A DNA stretch of 64,000 nucleotides. It comes from Escherichia coli 042 (GTDB lineage: Bacteria; Pseudomonadota; Gammaproteobacteria; Enterobacterales; Enterobacteriaceae). Below are positions 2,650 to 51,263 of this stretch, piece by piece. The notes below the pieces were generated by a model. It was not told the DNA's origin. It was given only the letters and a program-made list of their open reading frames with translations, and ran no database searches. The number at the start of each line of letters is the position of its first letter. Positions within the stretch are counted from its first letter, which is position 1. The DNA is taken from assembly GCF_000027125.1 (NCBI RefSeq), contig NC_017626.1, one strand, 5' to 3'. Made by a program: the position numbers and the translations under genes.

Positions 2650-3859
<1,210 letters not shown>

Positions 3860-3863
<4 letters not shown>

Positions 3864-4510
3864 GCCTCTGCTCCGGGTTTGATCAGCATCAGACCACAGC
3901 CGAACGCGCGGCTTTTGCCATACCCCTGGCTCAGACGTTGCAGAAATAACCCAGGATCGGTGACCGTAAGCATCCCCGTATAATCCACGCTACAGAACTG
4001 GATCAGTTGCCGGGAGTTTTCCCGCCGCAGTTGCTGTTGTCGGTAGGCATCGACCGAGGTATCCAGTAGTGTAAAACCGCTTCTTTCCCCCTGCGCTGCC
4101 AGCCAGTCCAGCGCCGCCTGTTGTTGATGCAACCAGACATCACGCCCTTCCGCCTGCCCCCTCACCTGCCGTTTCGCCTCTATCAGCAGATCGTGGCGCT
4201 TACCCGCTTTACAGACTGTTGGATTCGCCCGCAGGTTGAAACAAAGGGATTGTCCGGTACGCAGCTCCGGCGCAAATGACCGGCATTCGATGGTGAACGT
4301 ATCACTTTCCGCCGGGCGTTCCTGCGACAGGACAAAAAAGCGAAACGCGCCCTGGAGTTCTTCCCGACGATAAAGAAATTGCCTTTCTTTGCCACCCGGG
4401 AAAAGATCCCACAGCCACTGATGCATCACATATTCACCGCGATCCACCAGATGCAGCAACTGCGCAGGCGAAAGCTGGCCGGTATGTAAGGTTATTCTTG
4501 AGAGGTACAT
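3860..4510 (-). CDS. casE: Cas6e / CasE (Cse3) crRNA endoribonuclease
   Basis: Track ORF 3860..4648; I place the start at the internal Met (MYLSRITLH..., about 4510), which is preceded by AGGAGG. C-terminal glycine-rich segment GCGLMLIK typical of Cas6e. Confidence 0.85.
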
Positions 4511-5238
4511 GGTTCCTCCTTGCTGAGCCACGGCCCCTGATTGACGGTGCGTTCCCCAAACAGCCACTGCTGGCGATTTAAAGGAACATCCCGGCGGCGC
4601 AATATTTTGCTCGCGACCAGGCCGTCGTGCTCCCCTTCCCACCAGCATTCATCCTGAAGTTTCGGGAGTGAGACTTTCAGTTCGTGGAAACGATCCTGAT
4701 ACTGTTGGTATGCGTTACGTAAGACATCAGACGCGTTGCCTTCGAGCAGTAACGGCGCAAGTGGTAACGCCAGCGGATGACTTTTTCGCCCCAGATAAAG
4801 CGGAAAAACCGGATGACGTAAATCTTCCTGCAACTGTTCGAGGCTGTAAGGCGCATCGGGGGTTGTTGCCACCGCCACCATCCACCAGGCGTCGGTGTAA
4901 TAGTCGCGCCGGGAGATAATCGCGCTTAGCAGTTCAAGATTACTCAACTCTTCGCGACGGCTGAAATAACGCGCTTTACGCACCTCTTTTGGCATCTGGA
5001 CCGTGTGATAATCCCGTGCCCAGCGCGGGTTACGGCTGGCGCAAACCACCAGTGAATAGTGGCGATTAAACGCGTTTAAGCGTTCGGTATCATCACGCCG
5101 AATCCCTACCCCGGCAGCCAGCAGCCCCAGCAATGCTGAGCGCGAAGGCAGTTCATGGGTATGACGCACTTCACCGGGGGCATCGACGCCCCAGGATGCC
5201 ATCGGCCCATGAAGCTGAAAAATTAGATATTGGCTCAT
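4492..5238 (-). CDS. casD: Cas5e / CasD
   Basis: 248 aa, MSQYLIFQLHGPMASWGVD...RSALLGLLAAGVGIRRDD matches the Cas5e N-terminal motif; operon position. Confidence 0.9.
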   Translation of the reverse strand: MSQYLIFQLHGPMASWGVDAPGEVRHTHELPSRSALLGLLAAGVGIRRDDTERLNAFNRHYSLVVCASRNPRWARDYHTVQMPKEVRKARYFSRREELSNLELLSAIISRRDYYTDAWWMVAVATTPDAPYSLEQLQEDLRHPVFPLYLGRKSHPLALPLAPLLLEGNASDVLRNAYQQYQDRFHELKVSLPKLQDECWWEGEHDGLVASKILRRRDVPLNRQQWLFGERTVNQGPWLSKEEPCTSQE

Positions 5239-5248
5239 AAGCCGCCCC

Positions 5249-6304
5249 TTACGCGCAGATAAAGTCCAGCACGTCCTTCATGCTTCCCTGTTTGTTCATC
5301 ACGTCAAAACTTGTGTAATCGGTCTTCTGTTCGTAAACCTTATTCATGTTTTCGCGAAGCGTCGTAATACGCTGCACCGCTTCATCTAACTGCCCGGTGC
5401 CGTTAATGGGTTCATAAAAAGCCGCCGCCAGAGAGCGCGGTTGTTCGATACCTTTTTCTGCCATCGCCCAGGAGGCGTAGGCACGACTGGCAAAGCTGTT
5501 TTGTTTACCGGTTGGGGAAACTTTAAACGCGGCTTCCGTAAAGGCGCGCAGGGTCTGATTAGCCAACGCTTCGTCTCCGCCGAGGTTTTCTACCAACAGA
5601 TCTTTATCAATGCAGATATAGGTGTAGAAAAGTGCTGAACCGAATCCGGTTTCACCAAGATGCCCGGCACCGGCATCTTCAGAAGCCTGGCGCAAATCAT
5701 CAACGGCGGTGAAAAAATCATCTTCGACAATCGTTTCACTGACACCAAACGCATGCGCAACCTGGCAGGCGGCTTCAACATTAAACTCGGGTTTATTCGC
5801 CAGCATACGACCAAACATAGCGATATCTACCGCCATGCGATCTTTACGTAACAAAGCGAGATCTTCCTCTTTTGGCGCGCGCTTTTCTTCGGCCAGTTGA
5901 TGGGCCAGCGCTTTTACGGCGTCAAATTCTGCCGGGCTGATATGGACTAGCTGTTCAGTTTCGGCGTTAGTGAGCGGATCTTTTGGTTTTTTGTCGTTTT
6001 TAGCTTTCCCAAGATAATCCGCAATTTTTGCCGCCCATTCGATGGCTTTTTTCTCTTCGATGCCTTTCTCAATCAGGATAGTTGCCGCCTCACGCGCAAT
6101 ACGCCCACTGCGAATACCAATATGGCCCGCCAGTGCCTGTTCAAAATGTGCAGAAGTGCGCCACGCACGTTTCAGACTTTGTGAGGAAACGCGCAGACGC
6201 GTTGCTCCACCCAGTACCACAGTTTTTGGCGCACCGGTGTCATCACGGTTAAGGTTGGCAGCAGGGTAAGCGGTTAACAAATGAAGCTGAATAAATGTCG
6301 TCAT
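5249..6304 (-). CDS. casC: Cas7e / CasC (Cascade backbone)
   Basis: 351 aa, MTTFIQLHLLTAYPAANLNRDDTG...SSQSLKRAWR is the Cas7e signature; operon position. Confidence 0.92.
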   Translation of the reverse strand: MTTFIQLHLLTAYPAANLNRDDTGAPKTVVLGGATRLRVSSQSLKRAWRTSAHFEQALAGHIGIRSGRIAREAATILIEKGIEEKKAIEWAAKIADYLGKAKNDKKPKDPLTNAETEQLVHISPAEFDAVKALAHQLAEEKRAPKEEDLALLRKDRMAVDIAMFGRMLANKPEFNVEAACQVAHAFGVSETIVEDDFFTAVDDLRQASEDAGAGHLGETGFGSALFYTYICIDKDLLVENLGGDEALANQTLRAFTEAAFKVSPTGKQNSFASRAYASWAMAEKGIEQPRSLAAAFYEPINGTGQLDEAVQRITTLRENMNKVYEQKTDYTSFDVMNKQGSMKDVLDFICA

Positions 6305-6318
6305 GAGATAGTCCTTTA

Positions 6319-6855
6319 TTAATTTTGTTCGTTATCGGCGTCGCCAGCCTGGTAATATTCCAGCGCCCAGCGGATACGGATAAATTCTGTTGGCCGCTGC
6401 TGGCGGCGGTGATGATTGAGCAGATCGTCGCTCTCCTGGCACCAGCGGAAAATATCGTCTGCCAAAGAGATAAGATTGACGGAACCATTTAATAATTTGA
6501 CCGCGCGACGTAACTGGCGCAGTAATTCATCCGGCGTTTTGACTGCCGACAGGCGAGTAAAACGCCCCTCAGACATTACCGCCGCCAACTGCGCGGCAAA
6601 AAGCTGCCGTTCATCAATGGCTTTTACATTGGCGGCAACGGCGGCAACCAGCGCCAGTGCGGTAAAACGCCACTCCTGTGATTCAATTTTCCACAACGTG
6701 TGGGTCTGCATCAGCAGAGAACGAAACCCTTCTGACAGACAAACATCATTAACCGTTGTGCTACGCCGCAGACTGGCACGATTGCCTCGTTTTTCCTGCA
6801 ACTCTTCGTGCCATTTACGCAGCGTGGCTTTGTGCTCCTCTTTTACAATACTCAT
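6319..6855 (-). CDS. casB: Cse2 / CasB (Cascade small subunit)
   Basis: 178-aa ORF between casA and casC with ATGA-type overlap to casA; assignment mainly by operon position and size, sequence divergent from my memory of K-12 CasB. Confidence 0.75.
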   Translation of the reverse strand: MSIVKEEHKATLRKWHEELQEKRGNRASLRRSTTVNDVCLSEGFRSLLMQTHTLWKIESQEWRFTALALVAAVAANVKAIDERQLFAAQLAAVMSEGRFTRLSAVKTPDELLRQLRRAVKLLNGSVNLISLADDIFRWCQESDDLLNHHRRQQRPTEFIRIRWALEYYQAGDADNEQN

Positions 6856-8414
6856 TCAGCAGCCTCCTGCTTTTTCTCCCTGGCGGCTTTAGCACTTTGC
6901 TTCTCCGCCGATGTTGTAAAATATTTCTTGCGCGCGGTCATGACGCGTTTCAAATCAACGGGCTCATAAGGATTAGTGAATACACGCTCGTCAAAATCCT
7001 GACGCGCGAATAACCAAATTTCCTTTTGCCATTTGCCGAGTAATTCATCCGCATCCTGACCTTCTTCAATTTGGCGCACTAACCTCAGGAAGCGATGCTG
7101 AGTTTTGTTCCAGAAGTCGATATCCACAAAACTAAAATCACCCCGAGCACCTTTTGGATCGGAGAACCAGGCTTCTTTCAATGCACTCCGTAACAGACTT
7201 AGAATCCGTGAAGCCGTTTGCGCAACCAGCCGCAGCTTCGGTATCTGGCCTTCTTTTTTATTGAGCAGCAGCGGGAAATGGTGTTCGTACCAACAACGGG
7301 CTTTCATGTTGTCAAAATCATAACCAAATCCCCACAGGCCCACTTTTGTCTGCTTCAGACTGCTGGCATTAAAGAGTTTCACCACCAGCGCGGGAAGTTC
7401 CGTATTGTTTTCTGACTTACCCGTTTCGATAAGACCTAACCAGTCGCGCCAGATTAAACCGCCCGGTTGTGGTTTAACGGAGTAAAACTCACCGCCCTCT
7501 TTAAGTGGTACACGGTAAGGCGTTAAGGGATGCTGCCACATGGCATAATTCGCACCATAATTTTTGGTCGTCATCAGGCTCAGGAGCGAGTCATTCTGCT
7601 CGCCGCAAATATCGCAGTTGCCGACTGTCGTGGTATTAAAATCAATACGAATACGCCGCGGCATTCCCCAGTACGCCTGGAGTTTATTGACCTGATCATG
7701 GGTTACCACCGCACCGGCCAGTTCGCTGGTACGCGTCGGGCCAAGCCAGGGGAAAATCAGATCGTCAAATTTTTTGGGTAGCGGTAAGTCGGCTTCATCC
7801 TGCGGCATCACATTGAGCCACAGTTTGCGCCACAAGGGTGTTTGTTGATTGCCCTGATATTCCTGTAATTCAATCAGAGTGGTCATCGGCCCACCGCCGC
7901 GTAAACCGGTGCGATAGCCTTTGCCGCCTGACGGCGCATTTAACTGTAGGGAGAACAGAGCTAACGCAGAACAATGTGGGCACAGGTATTCCGTTACACC
8001 ACGCTTGATAAAGTGGTCTTTATTAAACTTCGTTGTTTGAGCGCCGGGAATCTCAGGCAGTAGCGAAGCGACCGGAATTTTATCTCCGGTGAGCGCCTCG
8101 AAATCCTGCATAAATGAAGGGGAATCTGGGCCAAACTGGAAAGCATGTTCTAAAGATAGCAATGCTTCCCGTAGCTTTTCAGCTTCCAGTCCGTCTTCCC
8201 AGATATCATCCCAACGACGATGATCTTTTGGCGCGAAGCTGGTTTGTAGTAGCCCCAGCAAAAACTGCCACGCCGCTCCCTGGAGATCTGCCCGCGGCGC
8301 AGCGATATCGACAACATTTTCATCCGCCAGATCGACTGGCGCCAGTTTGCCTGTTGTTCCGTCTTTAAAACGAACGGGCAACCACGGGGTTGTCAGAAGT
8401 GAAAACGAGTTCAT
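6852..8414 (-). CDS. casA: Cse1 / CasA (Cascade large subunit)
   Basis: Track ORF 6852..8483; I favour the start at MNSFSLLTTPWLPVRF (about 8414) with GAGAGG 6 nt upstream; the 8420 and 8483 starts remain possible. Size about 520 aa fits the Cse1 family. Confidence 0.8.
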   Translation of the reverse strand: MNSFSLLTTPWLPVRFKDGTTGKLAPVDLADENVVDIAAPRADLQGAAWQFLLGLLQTSFAPKDHRRWDDIWEDGLEAEKLREALLSLEHAFQFGPDSPSFMQDFEALTGDKIPVASLLPEIPGAQTTKFNKDHFIKRGVTEYLCPHCSALALFSLQLNAPSGGKGYRTGLRGGGPMTTLIELQEYQGNQQTPLWRKLWLNVMPQDEADLPLPKKFDDLIFPWLGPTRTSELAGAVVTHDQVNKLQAYWGMPRRIRIDFNTTTVGNCDICGEQNDSLLSLMTTKNYGANYAMWQHPLTPYRVPLKEGGEFYSVKPQPGGLIWRDWLGLIETGKSENNTELPALVVKLFNASSLKQTKVGLWGFGYDFDNMKARCWYEHHFPLLLNKKEGQIPKLRLVAQTASRILSLLRSALKEAWFSDPKGARGDFSFVDIDFWNKTQHRFLRLVRQIEEGQDADELLGKWQKEIWLFARQDFDERVFTNPYEPVDLKRVMTARKKYFTTSAEKQSAKAAREKKQEAAE

Positions 8415-8511
8415 ACGCATCCTCTCGTAAAAAAGACCATCCCAGGTCGGTTGTCCATCATTCCATCCTTTTGGGTGTATCAACTATTCAGAGAGCCCTG
8501 TCGCAGGCATC

Positions 8512-11169
8512 TCAACCAACCTTGCCAGTCAATCCTTCCATAGCCGAATACCCGCAACTTTCGTCATCGGTGACTAAAATCACGTTTGCCATCTCCGGAT
8601 CTTGCCGCTGTTCAATGCACCACTGCCTGAACGCATCCCCTTCCAGTAAAGAAAACTCATCCCGATGTTTTTTCCACCAGCTTCGACGCACTCTGACAAC
8701 GCTCATTTCCCATGCGTGAGCACCGGTGGCATAAGGCTTCACCACACCGTCAATACAGGTAGCCAGCCACAGGGAAACAGATTCCTCAGCCAGACGTGTC
8801 GACAGCTTTTCCGGAAGGTAATCGTTGATATTGGCGGCATAGCCAGGCTTGAAGTTCAGGACAAACTTTTTAGCCATTGCGCGATCGCAGTAATATTTGC
8901 CCACTTGCTCCTGCTCACTGCGGGCAAATCCTTCCGGCATTGCCACGTCTTCACCGTAGACTGATTCAATAAGAAGCCGGGCTGCGTGTGGCATCTGAAT
9001 AGCGCCTTGCTCACGCAGCACACGCTGCGTCAGCCAGATTCGCCCATGATCGGGGTAGACATATGCACTGTTACGCATGGCGCTGCCAAACCATTCGTCA
9101 CCCGGAGAGTCATCCCAGACGGGAGCCAGAATCAGCAATTCAGGAGGGGAACGCTCATCTTTTCCGTCACGCTTTAACTGACCATTAATATCGCGGATAT
9201 GCCGCTGTAATCGCCCCGCCCGCTGGATTAGCAAATCAATGTGGGCCAGGTCGGAGATCATTTCGTCCAGGTCACAATCGACGCTCTGCTCTAATACCTG
9301 AGTACAAATAAGGACTTTTCCGGCACGCTGTGAGTTACCTTCTTTACCAAAGCGTGCCAGCGTTTCCGTTTCAATTCGCTGGCGATCGCTAAAAGCAAAG
9401 CGGCTATGAAAAAGTGAAAGGCTGGAAGCGGGAATGACGCCGCGGGCAAGCAGCTGACGATGAACCTTAATAGCGTCATCGACAGAATTCCGGATCCAGG
9501 CGATGCATTTCCCCTGACTTACCGCCGATTCGATATGTGCAATACATTCTTGTTCGCTATGAAGCCAACCCACACACACGTTGCGCTCAACTTCTTTGCG
9601 CGTCGCTACCCGGTGCGAATGCAAATCGGATTTCGTGACATGCGTCAGCCATGGGTAATCATCCTTTTCAAGGAACGGAGCTTCTTGTTGGCCCTCTGCA
9701 CCACGCGCAAAGGCAGCGACGAGTTTGTCGCGCTGCTGTTGAGATAACGTAGCAGAAAGCAAAATGATACTGTTTCCGCCACGCGCCTGCCGCTCAATCA
9801 ATCCTTCAAGAATGCACGACATGTAAGCGTCACAGGCATGGATCTCATCAGCCAGCAGGATTTTTTTACTCAACCCCAGAAGCCGCAGATTATTATGTTT
9901 GAACGGCATCACCGCCATCATCGCCTGATCCAAGGTGCCGACGCCAATTTCAGCCAGCAACGCCTTCTTGTTACTGTCGGCAAACCAGGCCGCACATCCC
10001 TGGCTGAACGCTTGTTCATCCGGTTCTTCTGACCCGACTAAATCACCGGACCAGAGTGATTCATTGAAGCGGTCCATTAATGTATGGGCACTGTGTGCCA
10101 GCACCAGGCTGGGGCGGGATTCTGGCGAATAGAAAGCAAGCCAGGTTTTGACCAGCCGATCGTACATGGCATTGGCCGTTGCCATTGTTGGCAGGCCAAA
10201 AAACAAACCCTGAGCTTTCCCCGCAGCCATCAACCTGTGGACCATGATAAGCGCTGCTTCTGTTTTACCTGCGCCAGTCACATCCTCCAGAATAAATAAC
10301 TGTGGCCCAGGCTGGCTGATATCCAGATCCAGTACCTTTTGCTGTAACGGTGTCGGGTGCTCAATAAAAGGAAACAGTGTATTAATTCCGGTGAAAGGCG
10401 CGGTTTGTGCTTTTGGAGGAAAGACGGTTAAGGCGTTTTGAGCCTGAACTAAAGCCTTCTGCCAGTAATCTTTAATATCCATTGCCTGTGCAACGCGTGG
10501 AAAAAACCGCGTTGACGATCCCGTCCAGTCTGCGAGTACGACGGTTGCAGAGATATACCAGGAAAGTTGTTTTATAAGTTCAACGCCCTCGTCATCATCC
10601 CAGAATGTGGGGATCTCGATGAGCGGGAACAGTGTCTTGATTGCAAGGAGAAAATCTCGTGCGGCAGCTTTGTCTTCAGGCAGAAAATTATCCAGTTCAT
10701 CCATACGATCAGGAGGCTGACCATGATGCCCGGTAGTCATGGGCATCCACATCTCTATTACCCGTTTAAGTTTGCGGGGAGAGAGTGAAGATGAAGGAAG
10801 CAACTCTTCACATTCAATTAAATAATGATTCCACAACCAGTAGCCCAGCGTTGAATGAGAGATCTTTTCGTAATTTTTTCTTGCACTTTCCGGAACCTTG
10901 AGCTGTGGGTGCAGGTAAAGTTGCTGAAAAGAGCGGGCAAATTTTCCAGTATCGTGCCAACACAGCAACCAGGCGAAAAATTGTGCTGCCTGCTCCGTGT
11001 CAGCGATACCTAATTGACGAAAATAGTCAGCCAACCCGAAACAGTTGTTTTTGACCATTAAATAACCCGTCGCGGCTACATCCAGCGAATGCCAGCAAAG
11101 TAGATGATAGTCGTCGCCGCCCTCTTTCTCGCCACGTCGGGTTTTTCCCCAGAAATCAAAGAAAGTCAC
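8512..11169 (-). CDS. cas3: Cas3 helicase-nuclease (HD domain + DEAD/DEAH helicase), type I-E
   Basis: 885 aa; N-terminal HD motif (HSLDVA...H), helicase motif I (GAGKTEA), DExH-like LADEIH, motif VI QRAGRLQR. Confidence 0.93.
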   Translation of the reverse strand: MTFFDFWGKTRRGEKEGGDDYHLLCWHSLDVAATGYLMVKNNCFGLADYFRQLGIADTEQAAQFFAWLLCWHDTGKFARSFQQLYLHPQLKVPESARKNYEKISHSTLGYWLWNHYLIECEELLPSSSLSPRKLKRVIEMWMPMTTGHHGQPPDRMDELDNFLPEDKAAARDFLLAIKTLFPLIEIPTFWDDDEGVELIKQLSWYISATVVLADWTGSSTRFFPRVAQAMDIKDYWQKALVQAQNALTVFPPKAQTAPFTGINTLFPFIEHPTPLQQKVLDLDISQPGPQLFILEDVTGAGKTEAALIMVHRLMAAGKAQGLFFGLPTMATANAMYDRLVKTWLAFYSPESRPSLVLAHSAHTLMDRFNESLWSGDLVGSEEPDEQAFSQGCAAWFADSNKKALLAEIGVGTLDQAMMAVMPFKHNNLRLLGLSKKILLADEIHACDAYMSCILEGLIERQARGGNSIILLSATLSQQQRDKLVAAFARGAEGQQEAPFLEKDDYPWLTHVTKSDLHSHRVATRKEVERNVCVGWLHSEQECIAHIESAVSQGKCIAWIRNSVDDAIKVHRQLLARGVIPASSLSLFHSRFAFSDRQRIETETLARFGKEGNSQRAGKVLICTQVLEQSVDCDLDEMISDLAHIDLLIQRAGRLQRHIRDINGQLKRDGKDERSPPELLILAPVWDDSPGDEWFGSAMRNSAYVYPDHGRIWLTQRVLREQGAIQMPHAARLLIESVYGEDVAMPEGFARSEQEQVGKYYCDRAMAKKFVLNFKPGYAANINDYLPEKLSTRLAEESVSLWLATCIDGVVKPYATGAHAWEMSVVRVRRSWWKKHRDEFSLLEGDAFRQWCIEQRQDPEMANVILVTDDESCGYSAMEGLTGKVG

Positions 11170-11340
11170 AATGTTTTTATCCTTCAGTAAAACTTAAAGG
11201 ATATTTACGCATATATTAAAAATTATCTGTGATATATATCGTTCAATAAAACATTTACATTATGAATAATCAAATAGTTTTCATCCGTAATATATATGAA
11301 TAATAAACATAGGCATAATATTCACATAAACAATATAAAT
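11170..11340. promoter_or_regulatory. AT-rich cas3 upstream region (probable promoter / nucleoid-protein-bound region)
   Basis: About 170 bp of very AT-rich sequence immediately 5' of the cas3 start; H-NS silencing of E. coli cas promoters is established knowledge, its application here is inference. Confidence 0.5.
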
Positions 11341-11406: not shown

Positions 11407-11559
11407 CTACTTCTTCGATTCGTAAGCGAGAACTGCCTTAAACTCCATACCACGTTCTCTGATACTCAACTCACACAACGAGTCGCCTACCATCAGCGTG
11501 AATCCCAGTACTGTACAACACAGTACGATGATTGCCACAAGGGCATATTTTGTCAGCAT
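11407..11559 (-). CDS. Hok/Gef-family type I toxin, 50 aa (HokE-like), unannotated small ORF
   Basis: Hand translation of the minus strand gives [50 protein letters not shown]; single TM helix, conserved Cys and C-terminal AYE motif, GGGAGG SD upstream, GC hairpin just 3' of the stop. Below the track size cut-off. Confidence 0.8.
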
Positions 11560-11823
11560 GTCTTGCCTCCCTGCAAAGAAGAGACTAACATTCGAATTGC
11601 TTAGGTTCGAACGCTGGCCTCAGGTTGATTGAAATATCGCCTGGGGCTTTTGTCCATCTGGAACCTCGCGAATGCTTAACGCCAGACAGCCTCAAGCACC
11701 CAACGCCATTCTATACCTGTTAATTTTCCCTGCGATGTTCACCTTTAAATGCCGGAATGCTGCTCGCAAAATAAAAACGCCCCCATCATTTCTGACAGAG
11801 GCGTTTAATTTATCCGGCAATAT

Positions 11824-22116: not shown

Positions 22117-22209
22117 CTTTACCCCTTCATTGTCCGGTAATAAGAACGGCTTCTCACCTGAGAAGCCGAAAAGGCAACGCCCCGTCACCACGGGACGCTG
22201 CCTGACACA

Positions 22210-29590: not shown

Positions 29591-30193
29591 ATGCTCAGGA
29601 TATTCATCGTAATTATATTTATTGCCAATTTATCAGGCTGTGGATATAACGATATTCAAACCTATGATGAGCAGGTTAACGCCTCCTGGTCTGAGGTATT
29701 GAATCAATATCAACGTCGCGCCGATCTTATTCCTAATCTTGTCGCCAGTATTAAAGGTTATTCCAGCCATGAACAAGAGGTACTGGAAGCCGTAACATTG
29801 GCACGTAGCCAGGCTAATCGCGCCAGTAGCGATCTTCAGCAAGCTCCGGGAGATGCGCAAAAATTACAAGCCTGGCAACAAGCCCAGGCGCAGGTGTCTC
29901 GCACTCTCGGTCAGTTAACGATAATTAGTGAACGTTACCCTGATTTAAAAGCTCAGGAACTCTATCAAAATTTAATGGTACAGCTCGAAGGAAGTGAAAA
30001 TAGAATTGCCGTTGCGCGAGGAAGATATATTAAAGCCATTGAACAATATAATGTCACTATCCGCAAATTCCCCGCTGTATTAACCGCAAAGGTCATGGAT
30101 TACACACCGAAGAAAAATTATTTGCCGGATGACGTCGCAGCTGTGAGTAAAGCACCAATAATAGATTTTAGCCAGAATGCTAATGCGCATTAA
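29591..30193 (+). CDS. LemA-family protein, probable lipoprotein / membrane-anchored
   Basis: 200 aa; N-terminal hydrophobic segment with lipobox-like LSGC; LemA-like core (ASWSEVLNQYQRRADLIPNLVASIKGY...ERYPDLKA...QLEGSENRIAVARGRY...YN). AAGGGA SD. Confidence 0.85.
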   Translation: MLRIFIVIIFIANLSGCGYNDIQTYDEQVNASWSEVLNQYQRRADLIPNLVASIKGYSSHEQEVLEAVTLARSQANRASSDLQQAPGDAQKLQAWQQAQAQVSRTLGQLTIISERYPDLKAQELYQNLMVQLEGSENRIAVARGRYIKAIEQYNVTIRKFPAVLTAKVMDYTPKKNYLPDDVAAVSKAPIIDFSQNANAH

Positions 30194-30206
30194 GCGGGGA
30201 AGTTAT

Positions 30207-31100
30207 ATGCGAAATTTTATCTTCCTTATGGCTTTCTTCTGTTCATCTGTGTTTGCCACACAAATTCCAGTACCTGAATCACCCAGGTATGTGAATGACT
30301 TAACCGGCACATTGACAAACAGTGAAGTAAACACCCTGACCAACCAGATTAAAGCCCTGACGCAAAAAAACAACGCACAGTTGGTCGTGTTAGTGGTTGA
30401 AACAACAGGCGATGAAACCATCGAGCAGTACGCAACGCGGGTATTCGATAGCTGGAAACCGGGTGATAAAGACCGCGATGATGGCGTTCTACTGTTAGTC
30501 GCCTGGCAGGATAATACCGTGCGTATTGAAATTGGTTACGGACTGGAAGGTATTATTACGGATGCGCAGTCCGGGAAAATTATTCGCAACAGTATTATTC
30601 CGGCATTTAAAAAAGGCGACCTGGCTGGCGGTTTACAAAAGGGGATCAGCGATATTGAAAGTCGTCTGACGGGGAATAATTTAGCAACGATAACACCGAC
30701 CGATTACCCTTTGCCCTTTAGTGGTTGGTGGGCTTTGTTAGTCTGGGCGATAGTACTGACGTTTATTTCTGCCAGAGGATATGTCAAAACACTGGGACTA
30801 ATTTGCTTCGCAGCTATTGTACTGGCCTTTGTTTTACCTATAGCAGGTTTCAGCGGAAGCTGGGGAGTGCTCGCAACATTACTCTGCTTCGCCACACCGT
30901 TCCTGGCTGTCGCCATCGCTTTTACTCCCTTCGGCAAAAAGGTTCGGGATTCGATGCGTAATACCAACCAGCCATCACGCCATACAAGAAACAATTCTTC
31001 CTCCCACTATTCGTCATCGTCATCCTCTTCATTCGACAATGACAATTTCCGCGGTGGTGGCGGTTCATCTGGTGGCGGTGGCGCTTCCGGGCGCTGGTAA
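30207..31100 (+). CDS. TPM-domain membrane protein (YgcG-like), paralog 1, Gly/Ser-rich C-terminal tail
   Basis: Track ORF 30177..31100; start placed at MRNFIFLMAFFCSSVFA (signal peptide). TPM-like domain (LVVLVVETTGDETIEQYATRVFDSWKPGD...GVLLLVAWQDNTVRIEIGYGLEG), then TM segments, tail ...FRGGGGSSGGGGASGRW. Confidence 0.85.
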   Translation: MRNFIFLMAFFCSSVFATQIPVPESPRYVNDLTGTLTNSEVNTLTNQIKALTQKNNAQLVVLVVETTGDETIEQYATRVFDSWKPGDKDRDDGVLLLVAWQDNTVRIEIGYGLEGIITDAQSGKIIRNSIIPAFKKGDLAGGLQKGISDIESRLTGNNLATITPTDYPLPFSGWWALLVWAIVLTFISARGYVKTLGLICFAAIVLAFVLPIAGFSGSWGVLATLLCFATPFLAVAIAFTPFGKKVRDSMRNTNQPSRHTRNNSSSHYSSSSSSSFDNDNFRGGGGSSGGGGASGRW

Positions 31101-31114
31101 CAAAAGGAATTGAT

Positions 31115-32263
31115 ATGCGTATTTTTCTCTTACTTCTGATGCTATGCGGTTTTCAGGTATTCGCTGAACGATTGCCTTCAGTGACTGACTTAACCGGGAC
31201 ATTAACGACAGAAGAACAAAGTGCTTTAAATCAACAATTACAGACTCTCGAGCAGCAAAACCACTTCCAGGTGGCCGTGTTGGTTACGCCGACCACAGGG
31301 GGCAAAAATATTAAACTTGCAGCCTCGCAGAGCTACGGGTTATATCACTGGAAACCCGTTGGAGAGAAGCGATATGGCGAAGGAATCTTAATTCTCGTCC
31401 TCTGGCCGGAAGGGCTGGCGTCAATGAAGATTGGACATGGACTGGAACAGATGTTGCCGCCGGAACAAGCTGCACAAATTGTTCGTTACCATATGCAGCC
31501 AGAATTCGAAAAAAACAATCTCTTTGCTGGATTAACGGGCGGAATTGAAAGCATCGCACAGTTTACCCATATCAAAGCGAACCTTAGCCCTTTGGATGCT
31601 TTAGCCAATCATCTGTTTGCTAATCCGCAACGTTCGCTGCCATGTCTTGCCTGGACACTGCTGATGATCGTTGCCATCGTTGTCCTCTGGCGATTTGCCA
31701 GCCGCCCAGGGCGTGGCATATGGATGATATCGATGATTACCCCTATGGTCTGGTTTTTCTTCTTTCAGGACGATGTCATCATTCGGCGGGTGTCGATCGT
31801 TTGTTTTAGTTTATTGTTCGCAACAACCTGCTGGCAGCGTCTCGCGGTAGTTTTTAATATGTGCCGCGCATTTCCTATGATGCTGGCCCCCAAAAATAAA
31901 AACACTAAAGTGAAAAAACAAAAGAAGACTCCGCAGGTTCGTGAATCAGGACGAAATTCATTGTTTGTCGTGATGCTGATAATTATTGTGGGATGGTGCC
32001 TGGTGTTCGCCAGTAATAAAGATATTGCATTCATCTCAACAATTATTGGGCTAATTGATCATTTTATCGGCCCAATAACCATTGCTGGCATAGTTCTGCT
32101 GATCATTGTGGCCAAATTTACTGGCAATCTTAAACTGGGGTCAGGAGAAAAAAGCAACAGGAAAACGGGGAATCGTAATGCTCATTCTCGCTCTTCGTCG
32201 AGAAATTCTTTCCGCGGTGGTGGTGGTTCTTCAGGAGGCGGCGGTTCATCCGGACGCTGGTAA
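31115..32263 (+). CDS. TPM-domain-like membrane protein, divergent paralog 2 with extended polytopic region and Lys-rich loop
   Basis: 382 aa; signal peptide, degenerate TPM-like region (VAVLVTPTTGGKNIK...ILILVLWPEGLASMKIGHGLEQ), several hydrophobic helices, loop KNKNTKVKKQKK, tail ...FRGGGGSSGGGGSSGRW. Confidence 0.8.
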   Translation: MRIFLLLLMLCGFQVFAERLPSVTDLTGTLTTEEQSALNQQLQTLEQQNHFQVAVLVTPTTGGKNIKLAASQSYGLYHWKPVGEKRYGEGILILVLWPEGLASMKIGHGLEQMLPPEQAAQIVRYHMQPEFEKNNLFAGLTGGIESIAQFTHIKANLSPLDALANHLFANPQRSLPCLAWTLLMIVAIVVLWRFASRPGRGIWMISMITPMVWFFFFQDDVIIRRVSIVCFSLLFATTCWQRLAVVFNMCRAFPMMLAPKNKNTKVKKQKKTPQVRESGRNSLFVVMLIIIVGWCLVFASNKDIAFISTIIGLIDHFIGPITIAGIVLLIIVAKFTGNLKLGSGEKSNRKTGNRNAHSRSSSRNSFRGGGGSSGGGGSSGRW

Positions 32264-32268
32264 TCATT

Positions 32269-33162
32269 ATGCGCTTAATCTTTTTTCTACTTACTTTATG
32301 GTGCCTTCCTGGGCTTGCCCAGCAAATTGCTGTGCCGGAGCTGCGCCAACAGGTGACCGATATTACTGGTACGTTAAGCACGTCTGAACAACAATCACTG
32401 ACACAACAGCTGCAGGATATCACACAAAAAACACGGGCCCAGGTCGCCGTATTAATAGTGCCATCCACCGGAGACGATACCATTGAACAATATGCAACAC
32501 GCGTTTTTGATAGCTGGAAACTGGGAGATAAGCAGCGAAACGATGGTATTTTACTGCTGGTTGCCTGGGAAGATCATGCTGTCCGTATAGAAGTGGGCTA
32601 CGGGCTGGAAGGGGTGGTTACCGATCTGCAAGCAGCGAAGATTATCCGTAATATATTAATCCCAGCCTTCAAAAGTGATGACTTGATGGGTGGGTTAACA
32701 CTGGCAAGCGAAAATATCGGAGCGCTTCTGTTGAATGGTGAATTACCGGAAGACAGGGGGGATTATTACAGTATCAATCCCCCTATTCCATTATCGCTTG
32801 CTGTAATTATATTGCTGGCGGTACTTTCATATTTTATTGTTTTTACCGATCCGTCGAATTTACCCTGGATAGCACTGACTGGCGGAATTTATGGGATGGT
32901 ATTCCTCTATGTTGCCGAGCCAGGACCATGGACGAATTTAATCGTTGCCTGCGGTATGCTCACGCCTTTTGCTATCGTACCACTGGTTATTTTTTGGCTT
33001 ATCGTTAATAAAAAGCTACGCGCCAAATACAAAAAACTCAGTAAAGAAAGAGCTTCAAGAAAAGGTTCTTCTTCATCCTCTTCCGGTGGCGGCTCAAGTG
33101 GCGGCGGATTTAGCGGCGGGGGCGGTTCTTCTGGCGGTGGCGGCGCGTCCGGTCGCTGGTAA
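32269..33162 (+). CDS. TPM-domain membrane protein (YgcG-like), paralog 3
   Basis: 297 aa; signal peptide, TPM domain close to paralog 1 (AVLIVPSTGDDTIEQYATRVFDSWKLGDKQRNDGILLLVAWEDHAVRIEVGYGLEG), TM helices, tail ...GGGSSGGGFSGGGGSSGGGGASGRW. Possibly the ygcG ortholog; not certain. Confidence 0.85.
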   Translation: MRLIFFLLTLWCLPGLAQQIAVPELRQQVTDITGTLSTSEQQSLTQQLQDITQKTRAQVAVLIVPSTGDDTIEQYATRVFDSWKLGDKQRNDGILLLVAWEDHAVRIEVGYGLEGVVTDLQAAKIIRNILIPAFKSDDLMGGLTLASENIGALLLNGELPEDRGDYYSINPPIPLSLAVIILLAVLSYFIVFTDPSNLPWIALTGGIYGMVFLYVAEPGPWTNLIVACGMLTPFAIVPLVIFWLIVNKKLRAKYKKLSKERASRKGSSSSSSGGGSSGGGFSGGGGSSGGGGASGRW

Positions 33163-40999: not shown

Positions 41000-43756
41000 A
41001 TGACCAACTACAGCCTGCGCGCACGCATGATGATTCTGATCCTGGCACCGACCGTCCTTATTGGTTTATTGCTGAGTATCTTTTTCGTTGTGCATCGCTA
41101 TAACGACTTGCAGCGTCAACTGGAAGATGCCGGAGCCAGCATTATTGAGCCGCTTGCAGTTTCTACTGAATATGGCATGAGCCTGCAAAATCGCGAATCT
41201 ATCGGTCAGTTAATAAGCGTACTGCATCGTCGCCATTCCGATATTGTTCGCGCGATTTCGGTTTATGATGAAAATAACCGACTCTTTGTCACCTCCAATT
41301 TTCATCTTGATCCCTCATCAATGCAGCTCGGCAGCAACGTGCCGTTTCCTCGCCAGCTCACTGTCACTCGTGACGGCGATATTATGATCCTCCGCACGCC
41401 GATTATTTCTGAGAGTTACTCCCCCGACGAATCGCCCAGTAGCGATGCCAAAAATAGTCAAAATATGTTGGGATATATTGCGCTTGAGCTGGATCTTAAA
41501 TCGGTTCGCTTGCAGCAATATAAAGAGATCTTTATTTCCAGCGTGATGATGCTGTTTTGTATCGGTATTGCGCTTATTTTTGGCTGGCGCTTAATGCGCG
41601 ATGTAACCGGTCCGATTCGCAATATGGTGAATACCGTCGACCGCATCCGTCGCGGGCAACTCGACAGCCGTGTGGAAGGATTTATGCTCGGCGAGCTGGA
41701 TATGCTGAAAAACGGTATCAACTCGATGGCAATGTCGCTGGCTGCTTATCACGAAGAGATGCAGCACAATATCGATCAGGCGACGTCCGATCTGCGTGAA
41801 ACGCTGGAGCAGATGGAAATTCAGAACGTTGAGTTGGATCTGGCGAAAAAGCGTGCCCAGGAAGCGGCGCGTATTAAATCCGAGTTTCTGGCAAATATGT
41901 CACACGAGCTGCGTACACCACTGAATGGTGTTATTGGCTTTACCCGCCTGACGCTGAAAACAGAATTAACACCAACGCAGCGCGATCACCTGAATACGAT
42001 TGAACGTTCGGCAAATAATTTGCTGGCAATTATTAATGATGTTCTCGACTTCTCGAAACTGGAAGCAGGTAAGCTGATTCTGGAAAGTATTCCATTCCCA
42101 CTACGCAGCACGCTGGATGAAGTCGTTACCCTGCTGGCACATTCTTCTCACGATAAAGGGCTGGAACTGACGCTCAATATTAAAAGCGACGTGCCCGATA
42201 ACGTAATTGGCGACCCACTACGATTACAGCAAATCATCACTAACCTGGTGGGGAATGCAATTAAATTCACCGAGAATGGCAACATTGATATTCTGGTAGA
42301 AAAACGTGCGCTGAGTAATACCAAAGTTCAGATTGAAGTGCAGATTCGGGATACCGGCATTGGTATTCCTGAACGCGATCAATCGCGCTTATTCCAGGCC
42401 TTCCGACAGGCTGATGCCAGTATTTCCCGCCGTCATGGTGGCACCGGGCTGGGGCTGGTGATTACACAAAAACTGGTTAATGAAATGGGCGGCGATATTT
42501 CGTTCCATAGCCAGCCGAATCGCGGTTCAACTTTCTGGTTCCACATTAATCTCGATCTGAATCCGAACATTATTATCGAAGGGCCATCCACCCAATGCCT
42601 CGCCGGCAAGCGCCTGGCCTATGTCGAACCAAACTCCGCAGCAGCGCAATGTACGCTGGATATTTTAAGTGAAACGCCGCTGGAAGTGGTTTATAGCCCA
42701 ACGTTCTCCGCGCTGCCTCCCGCGCATTACGACATGATGTTATTAGGCATTGCGGTGACCTTCCGCGAGCCGCTAACAATGCAACATGAGCGATTAGCGA
42801 AAGCGGTATCGATGACCGATTTTCTGATGCTGGCACTTCCTTGCCATGCACAAGTCAATGCTGAAAAACTTAAGCAAGATGGTATCGGCGCGTGTCTGCT
42901 GAAACCATTAACACCTACGCGCCTGTTACCTGCCCTGACGGAATTTTGTCATCACAAACAAAACACGCTTTTGCCTGTAACCGATGAAAGTAAGCTGGCA
43001 ATGACAGTCATGGCGGTTGATGACAACCCCGCTAACCTGAAACTTATCGGCGCATTGCTGGAAGATATGGTGCAACATGTGGAACTTTGCGATAGCGGGC
43101 ATCAGGCGGTTGAACGGGCGAAACAGATGCCGTTCGATTTGATCTTAATGGATATTCAAATGCCGGACATGGACGGCATTCGGGCCTGCGAACTCATCCA
43201 CCAGCTCCCCCATCAGCAACAAACGCCAGTTATCGCGGTAACGGCGCATGCAATGGCCGGGCAAAAAGAGAAGCTGCTTGGCGCAGGGATGAGCGATTAT
43301 CTGGCGAAACCGATTGAAGAAGAGCGATTGCATAATTTGCTGTTGCGCTACAAGCCTGGCAGCGGCATTTCCTCTCGCGTCGTGACGCCTGAAGTCAACG
43401 AAATTGTGGCGAACCCGAATGCAACCCTCGACTGGCAACTGGCACTACGCCAGGCAGCAGGAAAAACCGATTTAGCGCGCGATATGCTGCAAATGTTACT
43501 CGATTTCCTGCCTGAAGTTCGCAACAAAGTTGAGGAACAGCTGGTTGGAGAAAACCCGGAAGGCCTGGTTGATTTGATTCATAAACTGCATGGCAGTTGC
43601 GGCTATAGCGGTGTGCCGCGTATGAAGAATCTCTGCCAACTGATCGAACAACAGCTACGTAGCGGTACTAAAGAAGAAGATTTGGAGCCGGAGCTGCTGG
43701 AACTGTTAGACGAGATGGATAATGTAGCGCGCGAAGCCAGCAAAATTCTAGGGTAA
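41000..43756 (+). CDS. barA: hybrid sensor histidine kinase BarA (HisKA-HATPase-REC-HPt)
   Basis: 918 aa; H-box SHELRTPLN, receiver [12 protein letters not shown]...[15 protein letters not shown]-terminal HPt domain. Confidence 0.95.
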
Positions 43757-48421: not shown

Positions 48422-48442
48422 CCTGAAAAGATTCGATTCAGC

Positions 48443-48502
48443 ACCGCTAAAACGGCATTTACACCGCTAAAACGGCATTTACACCGCTAAAACGGCATTT
48501 AC
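48443..48502. repeat. perfect tandem repeat, 3 x 20 bp, plus partial fourth copy
   Basis: ACCGCTAAAACGGCATTTAC repeated three times head-to-tail, followed by CCGCT. Confidence 0.9.
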
Positions 48503-49767: not shown

Positions 49768-50096
49768 TAGCTCGCATCATCCGCAAAAAGAGCATCCAGT
49801 TTTTCCAGCTCAGCCAGAATAAGCGCGCGTTGCGGGTGGTCCGTCGCCAGCGCCATTTCATAATAGGGTGCAACGGCAAAAGCGCCCGGTAACGGCTGGT
49901 TGTTATCTAACAAATCGTGCATTCGCGGGATCAGCACCCACTGCAACCACTCCAGTGGTTCCATGGTGTCCATAAAGAACGGTTGGGTACTGTTAAATTG
50001 ATGCGGCTGGGGTTCATCGTTTTGCCAGTGCTGATGTTCACGCAGTAATGCTTCAAGCGCCTGCAGCTGGAGACGAACGCGGTCATGAGTGGTCAT
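49767..50096 (-). CDS. yqcC: DUF446-family protein
   Basis: 109 aa, overlapping the truC start; position upstream of csrB. Confidence 0.85.
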   Translation of the reverse strand: MTTHDRVRLQLQALEALLREHQHWQNDEPQPHQFNSTQPFFMDTMEPLEWLQWVLIPRMHDLLDNNQPLPGAFAVAPYYEMALATDHPQRALILAELEKLDALFADDAS

Positions 50097-50141
50097 AAAG
50101 CAACCTCAATAAGAAAAACTGCCGCGAAGGATAGCAGGAAT

Positions 50142-50498
50142 AAAAAAAGGGAGCACTGTATTCACAGTGCTCCCGGTTCGTTTCGCAGCATTCCAGCTAC
50201 TTTTGTTGCTCCCTGCTCATCCTTGACAACTTTTCCTCTGGCCTTGCGGCCAATCGTTCATCCTGAACTATTGCTTCCTGCTCACACCACCCCGATGTGA
50301 TACTTCATCCTGAAGTGTCCCTGGCCTTCCTGGCCCACCGAATCATCCTGACCGGTTCTCATTCTCCATCCTGGAGGTGTCCTTTAACGCGTCCTGCGTC
50401 ATCCTCTTCGCTTCATCCAGAAGCCTTTCCCTGAAACACCATCCTGGTGTGTCCTTCAGAAGTGTCATCATCCTGATGTTCACTTCGTTGTCTGACTC
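50142..50498 (-). ncRNA. csrB: CsrB regulatory sRNA (CsrA-sequestering)
   Basis: About 357 nt with many CAGGATG / AGGA motifs (seen as CATCCTG on the + strand); 5' end GAGTCAGACAACGAAGTGAACATCAGGATG; 3' terminator GGGAGCACTG...CAGTGCTCCC plus U-tract. Track ORFs 50085..50300 and 50377..50565 lie inside it and are not coding. Confidence 0.95.
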
Positions 50499-50680
50499 CC
50501 TGTCGACGAAGATAGAATCGTCTTTTTCGCGAAGTCTTACAAGGCGCTTACAGACAATGCCTTAAGGAAAATTTCATATGAAAGTTAAGGATTAACAAGC
50601 AATATATTGATTTTAAATGAAAATAACGATTCTTATCTTTTTAAGTATTCGCTTATTTCCTGGCGATCTCCTACAGAGTC

Positions 50681-50698
50681 TGTAAGAGATCTCTCACA
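50681..50698. promoter_or_regulatory. 18-bp palindrome TGTAAGAGATCTCTCACA upstream of csrB (UvrY/SirA-type box)
   Basis: Near-perfect inverted repeat about 185 bp upstream of the csrB 5' end; matches the UvrY-type recognition sequence as I recall it. Confidence 0.7.
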
Positions 50699-50717
50699 AC
50701 CAGATGGGGTATTTGGA

Positions 50718-51263
50718 TTACAGAAGAGGCTTAAGTTGATTAAGGAATTCCGCAAGATTTGAGGCTAAATGCGCCCGTTTACGTGTTCCCAGCGTCTCTT
50801 TGCACACTTCACCGGAGAGATTACACACCGAGATGACCTCTAACTCTTCTTCCAGCGTCGCGATAAATAGCGTGGGCGGCAGTTTTAGCCTTTTCTGAGT
50901 CACCAGATGACCAATCAGATTTTCCTGCACCCGACGGAAGTCGTCTTCACTCCAGGTTTGCAGCAATGTCAGTTTAATATCGCCAAACTGCGCGTGCATA
51001 TCCCCGGCAAACTGAGTCGTATAAAAGGTATGAATTGTGGGTTGTATCACAATATCAAAAGCGCGTTCAACCGCGTTTACATTTTGTTCCCCGGTAAACG
51101 GCTGGGGTTGCCAGTATACGGCGTCTTCGGTGGTTGAAATAATGCACGGTGAAGGAACGCCGTACAGTTCCTCACTCAACGGCCAGCTTTTATGCTCTTC
51201 ATGCCACGCATCGCAGTAGCGTGCAGTAAAATCTTTCAGGGCTTGTGCGGTCAAATCGTCCAC
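50718..51263 (-). CDS. syd: SecY-interacting protein Syd
   Basis: 181 aa, [24 protein letters not shown]... Confidence 0.92.

Follow-up and report, generated by a model that had tools for sequence, protein, structure and literature searches.

The csrB region of Escherichia coli 042 is almost certainly a canonical E. coli csrB transcription unit, complete with the upstream site through which the BarA-UvrY system would activate it. This reading is drawn from the sequence of a stretch of 64,000 nucleotides (NC_017626.1), here called the window, in which the gene of the sensor kinase BarA is also encoded. For E. coli, csrB, its UvrY box, its dependence on IHF and its map position near barA are all already established. 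Our additions are small and comparative. The box and an accompanying third half-site are conserved in position in at least 15 genera, the linkage of barA to csrB appears to be older and originally tighter than it is in E. coli, and one species carries three csrB units in tandem. The region is of value as a positive control: from raw sequence one can correctly recognise the gene of a non-coding RNA together with its terminator and a distant activator site.

Table 1. Features of the csrB transcription unit, its control region and barA in the window
Feature	Position	Strand	Basis
barA, tripartite sensor kinase, 918 aa	41000-43756	+	ORF and NCBIfam equivalog NF008318
csrB, 369-nt CsrB small RNA	50139-50507	-	RF00018; boundaries transferred from MG1655 b4408
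csrB intrinsic terminator	50142-50174	-	Terminator scan; equals the terminal hairpin of the Rfam consensus structure
Inferred weak sigma-70 promoter	50514-50542	-	Position relative to the annotated start, and conservation
Two direct TGTAAG hexamers, 11 bp apart	50536-50552	-	At -45 and -34, overlapping the -35 element
IHF-like core AATCAATATATTG (consensus WATCAANNNNTTR)	50600-50612	-	Pattern match, centre near -99
Third UvrY half-site TGTAGGAGA	50667-50675	-	Read in the sequence; 5 bp downstream of the palindrome
UvrY~P binding site, 18-bp near-palindrome TGTGAGAGATCTCTTACA	50681-50698	-	Identity with the published footprinted site

The RNA gene is identified by its structure family. In a scan of the whole window against Rfam, in which two matches exceed their gathering score, CsrB among them, RF00018 is matched on the minus strand at 50139-50498, from the first to the last of its 356 model positions, with 383.9 bits and E = 1.1e-111; the gathering score of the family is 71, which is exceeded about five-fold. 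Pairwise alignment to b4408 of MG1655 (369 nt, 99% identity) places the start of transcription at 50507; the 99% also holds for the MG1655 locus taken together with its entire control region. A 751-bp piece comprising the gene and its surroundings (50050-50800) is found at 95% identity or more in 5,425 of 5,426 complete E. coli genomes. In these the annotated neighbours of csrB are yqcC and syd, and in MG1655, too, csrB lies between the two.

The RNA is crowded with GGA, the motif that is displayed to CsrA. It contains 22 copies in 369 nt as against a window-wide mean of 4.8 per 369 nt; the csrB interval has the highest GGA score of the window, while its antisense strand has only 2. The longer motif CAGGATG occurs six times in exact form, and CAGGA[TA]G eight times. 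Leaving the terminator aside, the Rfam consensus structure has 11 hairpin loops, each with a GGA, and in the minimum-free-energy fold of the RNA 10 GGA sit in hairpin loops. The last one, no. 22, is placed within the stem of the terminator, which pairs GGGAGCACTGT with ACAGTGCTCCC (11 bp, seven of them G-C, with a 4-nt loop; 50174-50149 on the minus strand) and is directly followed by seven T (TTTTTTT) at 50148-50142. CsrB has been described as a 369-nt RNA with GGA sites numbered 1-22, site 22 being inside the terminator stem (PMC5027483), and the RNA of K-12, which is 99% identical, binds and sequesters multiple CsrA dimers (PMC4682653, PMC5027483). The gene in the window thus bears the marks of the CsrB/RsmB family: the covariance score, the GGA-loaded loops and a Rho-independent terminator. 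A preliminary description, made from the letters alone, had already seen a full CsrB RNA on the minus strand, with repeated motifs of the CAGGATG type and an intrinsic terminator. The covariance model, the count of GGA in predicted loops and the terminator scan bear it out on all of these points. It had also located the gene correctly, apart from the lower bound: 50142 is 3 nt inside the annotated 3' end, 50139.

The activator site lies far upstream. It reads TGTAAGAGATCTCTCACA on the plus strand and is centred at -182.5, counted from the csrB start. Zere et al. (2015; PMC4682653) reported the same 18-nt inverted repeat in csrB, centred at -183/-182 in E. coli. It sits at the middle of the upstream UvrY ChIP-exo peak, and UvrY protects it in DNase I footprinting. 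The same authors used the arm consensus TGTAAGNNNNNNCTTACA for UvrY and termed the third half-site a "partially conserved additional sequence". The 18-bp palindrome of the preliminary description, said there to lie about 185 bp upstream and to match the UvrY/SirA box, therefore holds as to exact position, sequence, distance and identity with the published site; the one amendment concerns its symmetry, which is imperfect, since the arms are complementary at 8 of 9 positions.

Within the window the 18-mer is the sole match to itself at up to three mismatches, and none of 100 shuffles gave any. The arm-only pattern TGTRAGN6CTYACA is a poorer guide: with one mismatch allowed, 0.39 matches are expected per shuffle, and its count alone is not significant. 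The significance of the box accordingly derives from the match of the full 18-mer and from conservation, not from the loose pattern.

Conservation was assessed in one genome per species (GTDB), which was scanned with a conserved 18-mer internal to csrB. Since the box was not used as a query, its conservation could be measured without circularity. The scan recovered Enterobacteriaceae, Erwiniaceae and a few others. Upstream DNA of 600 nt or more was available for 74 matches; the box was present with 0-4 mismatches in 51 of them and exact in 28. These 51 are all of the csrB copies from Enterobacterales loci with that much upstream DNA, i.e., the box is kept in 51 of 51. The other 23 were chance matches of the 18-mer in unrelated phyla, where the best approach to the box had at least 7 mismatches in a 700-nt scan and at least 6 in a 900-nt scan. 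In 14 selected loci from 13 genera Rfam confirmed a full-length CsrB with 203-377 bits. In 17 csrB copies, namely that of the window and 16 from these 14 loci, the box centre lies between -182.5 and -203.5 as counted from Rfam model position 1, in most of them at a distance of 188-193 nt.

An upstream alignment of 15 genera (234 nt ending at Rfam model position 12) has a mean column identity of 55%. Conservation clusters in a few blocks: the palindrome, which varies little or not at all, the third half-site, ATCA-N5-TTR, the CTTGT of the -35 element and the region around the start. Of the 51 loci, 23 have TGTGAGAGA without a mismatch as their third half-site, and 43 come within two mismatches of it; TGTAGGAGA, as found in E. 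coli, reads as a degenerate version.

Enterobacillus tribolii DSM 103736 has not one csrB but three full-length copies in tandem (7700-8078, 8311-8690 and 8922-9299 on the minus strand of locus L080). Each scores 232-239 bits in Rfam and comes with a separate terminator and, some 190 nt upstream, a separate box of the UvrY type, which implies that the whole transcription unit, activator site included, was triplicated. A duplication of csrB has been described in Vibrio (PMC6262261).

Between the UvrY box and the promoter lies the IHF-like core. The pattern is a weak one, with 11 strict matches in the window; its ATCA-N5-TTR form is conserved in 36 of 51 loci. A putative IHF site has been placed between two UvrY crosslinking zones, and IHF was found to be required for optimal UvrY binding and csrB activation (PMC4682653). 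The putative promoter consists of a -35 element TTGTAA (50542-50537), a 17-bp spacer and a -10 element GATTCT (50519-50514); at -35 the 15 genera share CTTGT with little or no variation. It matches the consensus at only 7 of 12 positions, and for this reason a sigma-70 consensus scan of 49900-51000 reported no promoter. Such a weak promoter is consistent with dependence on an activator.

The two TGTAAG hexamers near -35 are the only such pair in the window, and shuffles yielded none; single hexamers number 19 in 128 kb (both strands). The pair is fully conserved solely in Escherichia and Citrobacter. TGTAAG is an arm of the UvrY consensus, and the pair falls within a zone from -56 to +25 in which UvrY is crosslinked in vivo, yet leaves no footprint in vitro (PMC4682653). 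It is conceivable, if improbable, that the hexamers at -45 and -34 are low-affinity UvrY half-sites. If they are, they would explain why the in-vivo crosslink near -35 lacks an in-vitro footprint.

Two other readings of the region had to be weighed against that of an RNA gene with a remote activator site. The 18-bp repeat lies 20 nt downstream of the stop of syd, whose ORF ends at 50718, and it can form a 7-bp hairpin; one might take it for the transcription terminator of syd instead of a protein-binding site. Yet its stem has only two G-C pairs, no T run follows, and the terminator scan did not flag it. Moreover, conservation follows half-sites and includes the third, direct-repeat copy, which is unable to join the hairpin, and the published DNase I footprint has UvrY bound to exactly this repeat (PMC4682653). 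A syd terminator is thus highly improbable, and we rejected it for the missing T run, the G-C-poor stem and the half-site type of conservation. Still less credible, indeed next to inconceivable, is that small proteins, one or several, are encoded in the csrB interval. Open reading frames of 45-71 aa do exist there, four in number (50085-50300, 50297-50434, 50343-50483 and 50377-50565). Three of the four are antisense to csrB, however, none has an NCBIfam family match, no CDS is annotated over csrB in MG1655 or in RefSeq genomes, and the structured RNA family match (E = 1e-111) explains the interval wholly. Lacking family matches and annotation, they were rejected as genes; the preliminary description had rightly dismissed them as artefacts. 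The reading as a csrB unit with its UvrY box, which none of the data contradict, is the one we keep.

The same description had placed barA at 41000-43756 and within 6-7 kb of csrB. Both statements are correct: the ORF matches NF008318 with 1624 bits (cutoff 890) over residues 1-917, and its stop is 6,382 bp away from the 3' end of csrB; the transcription start follows at 6,751 bp and the box at about 6,934 bp. As this is the standard order of K-12, the linkage is not a discovery. MG1655 has 6,342 bp between barA and the csrB 3' end and the order barA-gudD-gudX-gudP-yqcA-truC-yqcC-csrB-syd, which is the same here. The 40 bp in excess are due to a 20-mer, CACCGCTAAAACGGCATTTA, which in the window forms a perfect tandem of three copies at 48442-48501, directly 3' of yqcA, as against one copy in MG1655. 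The latter has one mismatch; strain CFSAN018748 has a single exact copy, and other Escherichia loci covering the 3' interval of yqcA likewise have one, exact or with at most three mismatches.

In related species the distance varies. Among 14 related loci that extend past yqcA, barA is found beyond yqcA in 13, which span Enterobacteriaceae and Erwiniaceae. Twelve of these have at least 57% identity; the one from Pantoea stewartii (L015) is doubtful, being a partial match of 48%. In Enterobacillus tribolii (L080) yqcA has a neighbour other than barA, the match being 25% identical. The gudPXD genes are absent between barA and yqcA in five loci: Escherichia albertii (L004), which differs from E. 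coli in this respect, Erwinia persicina (L008), Erwinia rhapontici (L036), Pluralibacter (L051) and Yokenella (L071). There barA abuts yqcA, and its stop is about 1.65-1.7 kb from the csrB 3' end. The gap measures about 2.95 kb in two other Erwinia loci and 7.4-8.3 kb in Kosakonia, Mangrovibacter, Phytobacter and Buttiauxella, which, like E. coli, have the gud genes in between. The tight arrangement of the gud-less loci implies that the linkage predates the gudPXD operon; the latter was apparently inserted afterwards into a pre-existing barA-yqcA-truC-yqcC-csrB block.

It is tempting to see a function in this neighbourhood, in the sense that selection keeps a sensor gene close to its main target. 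The presence of barA past yqcA in 13 of 14 loci across Enterobacteriaceae and Erwiniaceae, and its distance of only about 1.65-1.7 kb from csrB where gud is absent, speak in favour. Other facts speak against it. barA and csrB are linked no more strongly than are the unrelated housekeeping genes of the same block, barA-yqcA-truC-yqcC-csrB-syd-queF being syntenic as a whole; a 4.5-kb gud operon was inserted between barA and csrB without apparent consequence; and in Enterobacillus tribolii the neighbour of yqcA, at 25% identity, is something else. UvrY, the actual binder of the box, is not encoded among the genes annotated in the region: uvrY is missing from the annotated genes of the collinear region in a close relative. 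Nor, judging by titles and abstracts from full-text literature searches, is the linkage the topic of any paper found, and one paper on Rahnella csrB does not mention the genomic context of the gene. A functional linkage is therefore unlikely in our judgement. Its conceivable grounds would be co-inheritance or co-transfer or a shared chromosomal domain. We give little credence to an ancestral tight sensor-target pair, about 1.65-1.7 kb apart before gudPXD, that selection would have maintained in Enterobacteriaceae and Erwiniaceae. With the whole block equally syntenic, uvrY absent and Enterobacillus as an exception, nothing beyond inherited gene order is in evidence. The proximity of barA and csrB is best taken as inherited synteny, not as part of the mechanism.

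As to that mechanism, what is said here on the binding of UvrY, IHF and CsrA derives from published work on K-12 sequence that is identical or nearly so. In K-12, BarA senses short-chain carboxylates and phosphorylates UvrY. By analogy, BarA of the window would pass its phosphate to a UvrY encoded elsewhere, and UvrY~P would bind the inverted repeat centred at -183/-182, with IHF probably needed for optimal binding and activation as published. IHF may bend the intervening AT-rich DNA near -99 and may thereby bring UvrY~P to the weak sigma-70 promoter. The resulting RNA of 369 nt, to judge by its sequence, ends at the intrinsic terminator and displays its 22 GGA, 11 of them in hairpin loops. 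With these it would sequester CsrA dimers away from their mRNA targets. Its decay presumably follows that of K-12, where RNase E initiates turnover by cleaving the RNA immediately 5' of the terminator and CsrD controls the process.

Elsewhere the window holds a type I-E CRISPR array at about 2219-2553, with a 61-bp period and the repeat CGGTTTATCCCCGCTGGCGCGGGGAACAC. By collinearity with an annotated strain, it is followed at about 2650-11300 by cas2-cas1-cas6e-cas5-cas7-casB-casA-cas3; about 280 bp at 9138-9418 are absent from the reference strain, whose cas3 is frameshifted. A sok antitoxin RNA (RF01794) is found at 11544-11701 on the minus strand, scoring 109.6 bits where the gathering score is 59. 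This chromosomal hok/sok locus adjoins cas3 and cysH, and a collinear strain has a Hok/Gef protein annotated there. At 22139-22143 the window is free of the IS200C that CFSAN018748 carries between ygcU and ygcS (L082, 39218-39925). Between queE and eno (29591-33162, plus strand) there are an intact gene of the LemA family and then three TPM-domain (ygcG-like) genes; the closely related CFSAN018748 has only pseudogene remnants at queE-eno, and about 3.5 kb of the window are unmatched in that strain.

The unit can be compared with three known systems. In Salmonella the SirA box of csrB is identical in its 18-nt sequence and has its centre at -182/-181; the extra half-site recurs there unchanged, and a putative IHF site is reported as well. 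Salmonella was outside our comparative set, and the comparison rests on PMC4682653. The K-12 gene, b4408, has the same length of 369 nt, 99% identity, the same 22 GGA sites and the same flanks, yqcC and syd. Its control region has the identical 18-bp repeat at the same position, -183/-182, and the identical third half-site. Three substitutions distinguish the RNA of the present strain from that of K-12. One, G to A, turns a G-T pair of the terminator stem into A-T, and a T-to-C change re-establishes the GGCC/GGCC pairing of hairpin 7. Four further substitutions are located in the AT-rich spacer immediately downstream of the IHF-like core, whereas the UvrY box, the third half-site and the promoter are all free of them. 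In Pseudomonas, rsmY and rsmZ have GacA-dependent upstream activating sequences with the consensus TGTAAGN6CTTACA. Their arm consensus, TGTAAGNNNNNNCTTACA, is the one that Zere et al. applied to UvrY. There, too, an 18-bp palindrome with TGTAAG/CTTACA arms is found far upstream of the gene of a small RNA that sequesters a protein of the CsrA/RsmA family, and the RNAs themselves, RsmY and RsmZ, belong to Rfam families other than that of CsrB.
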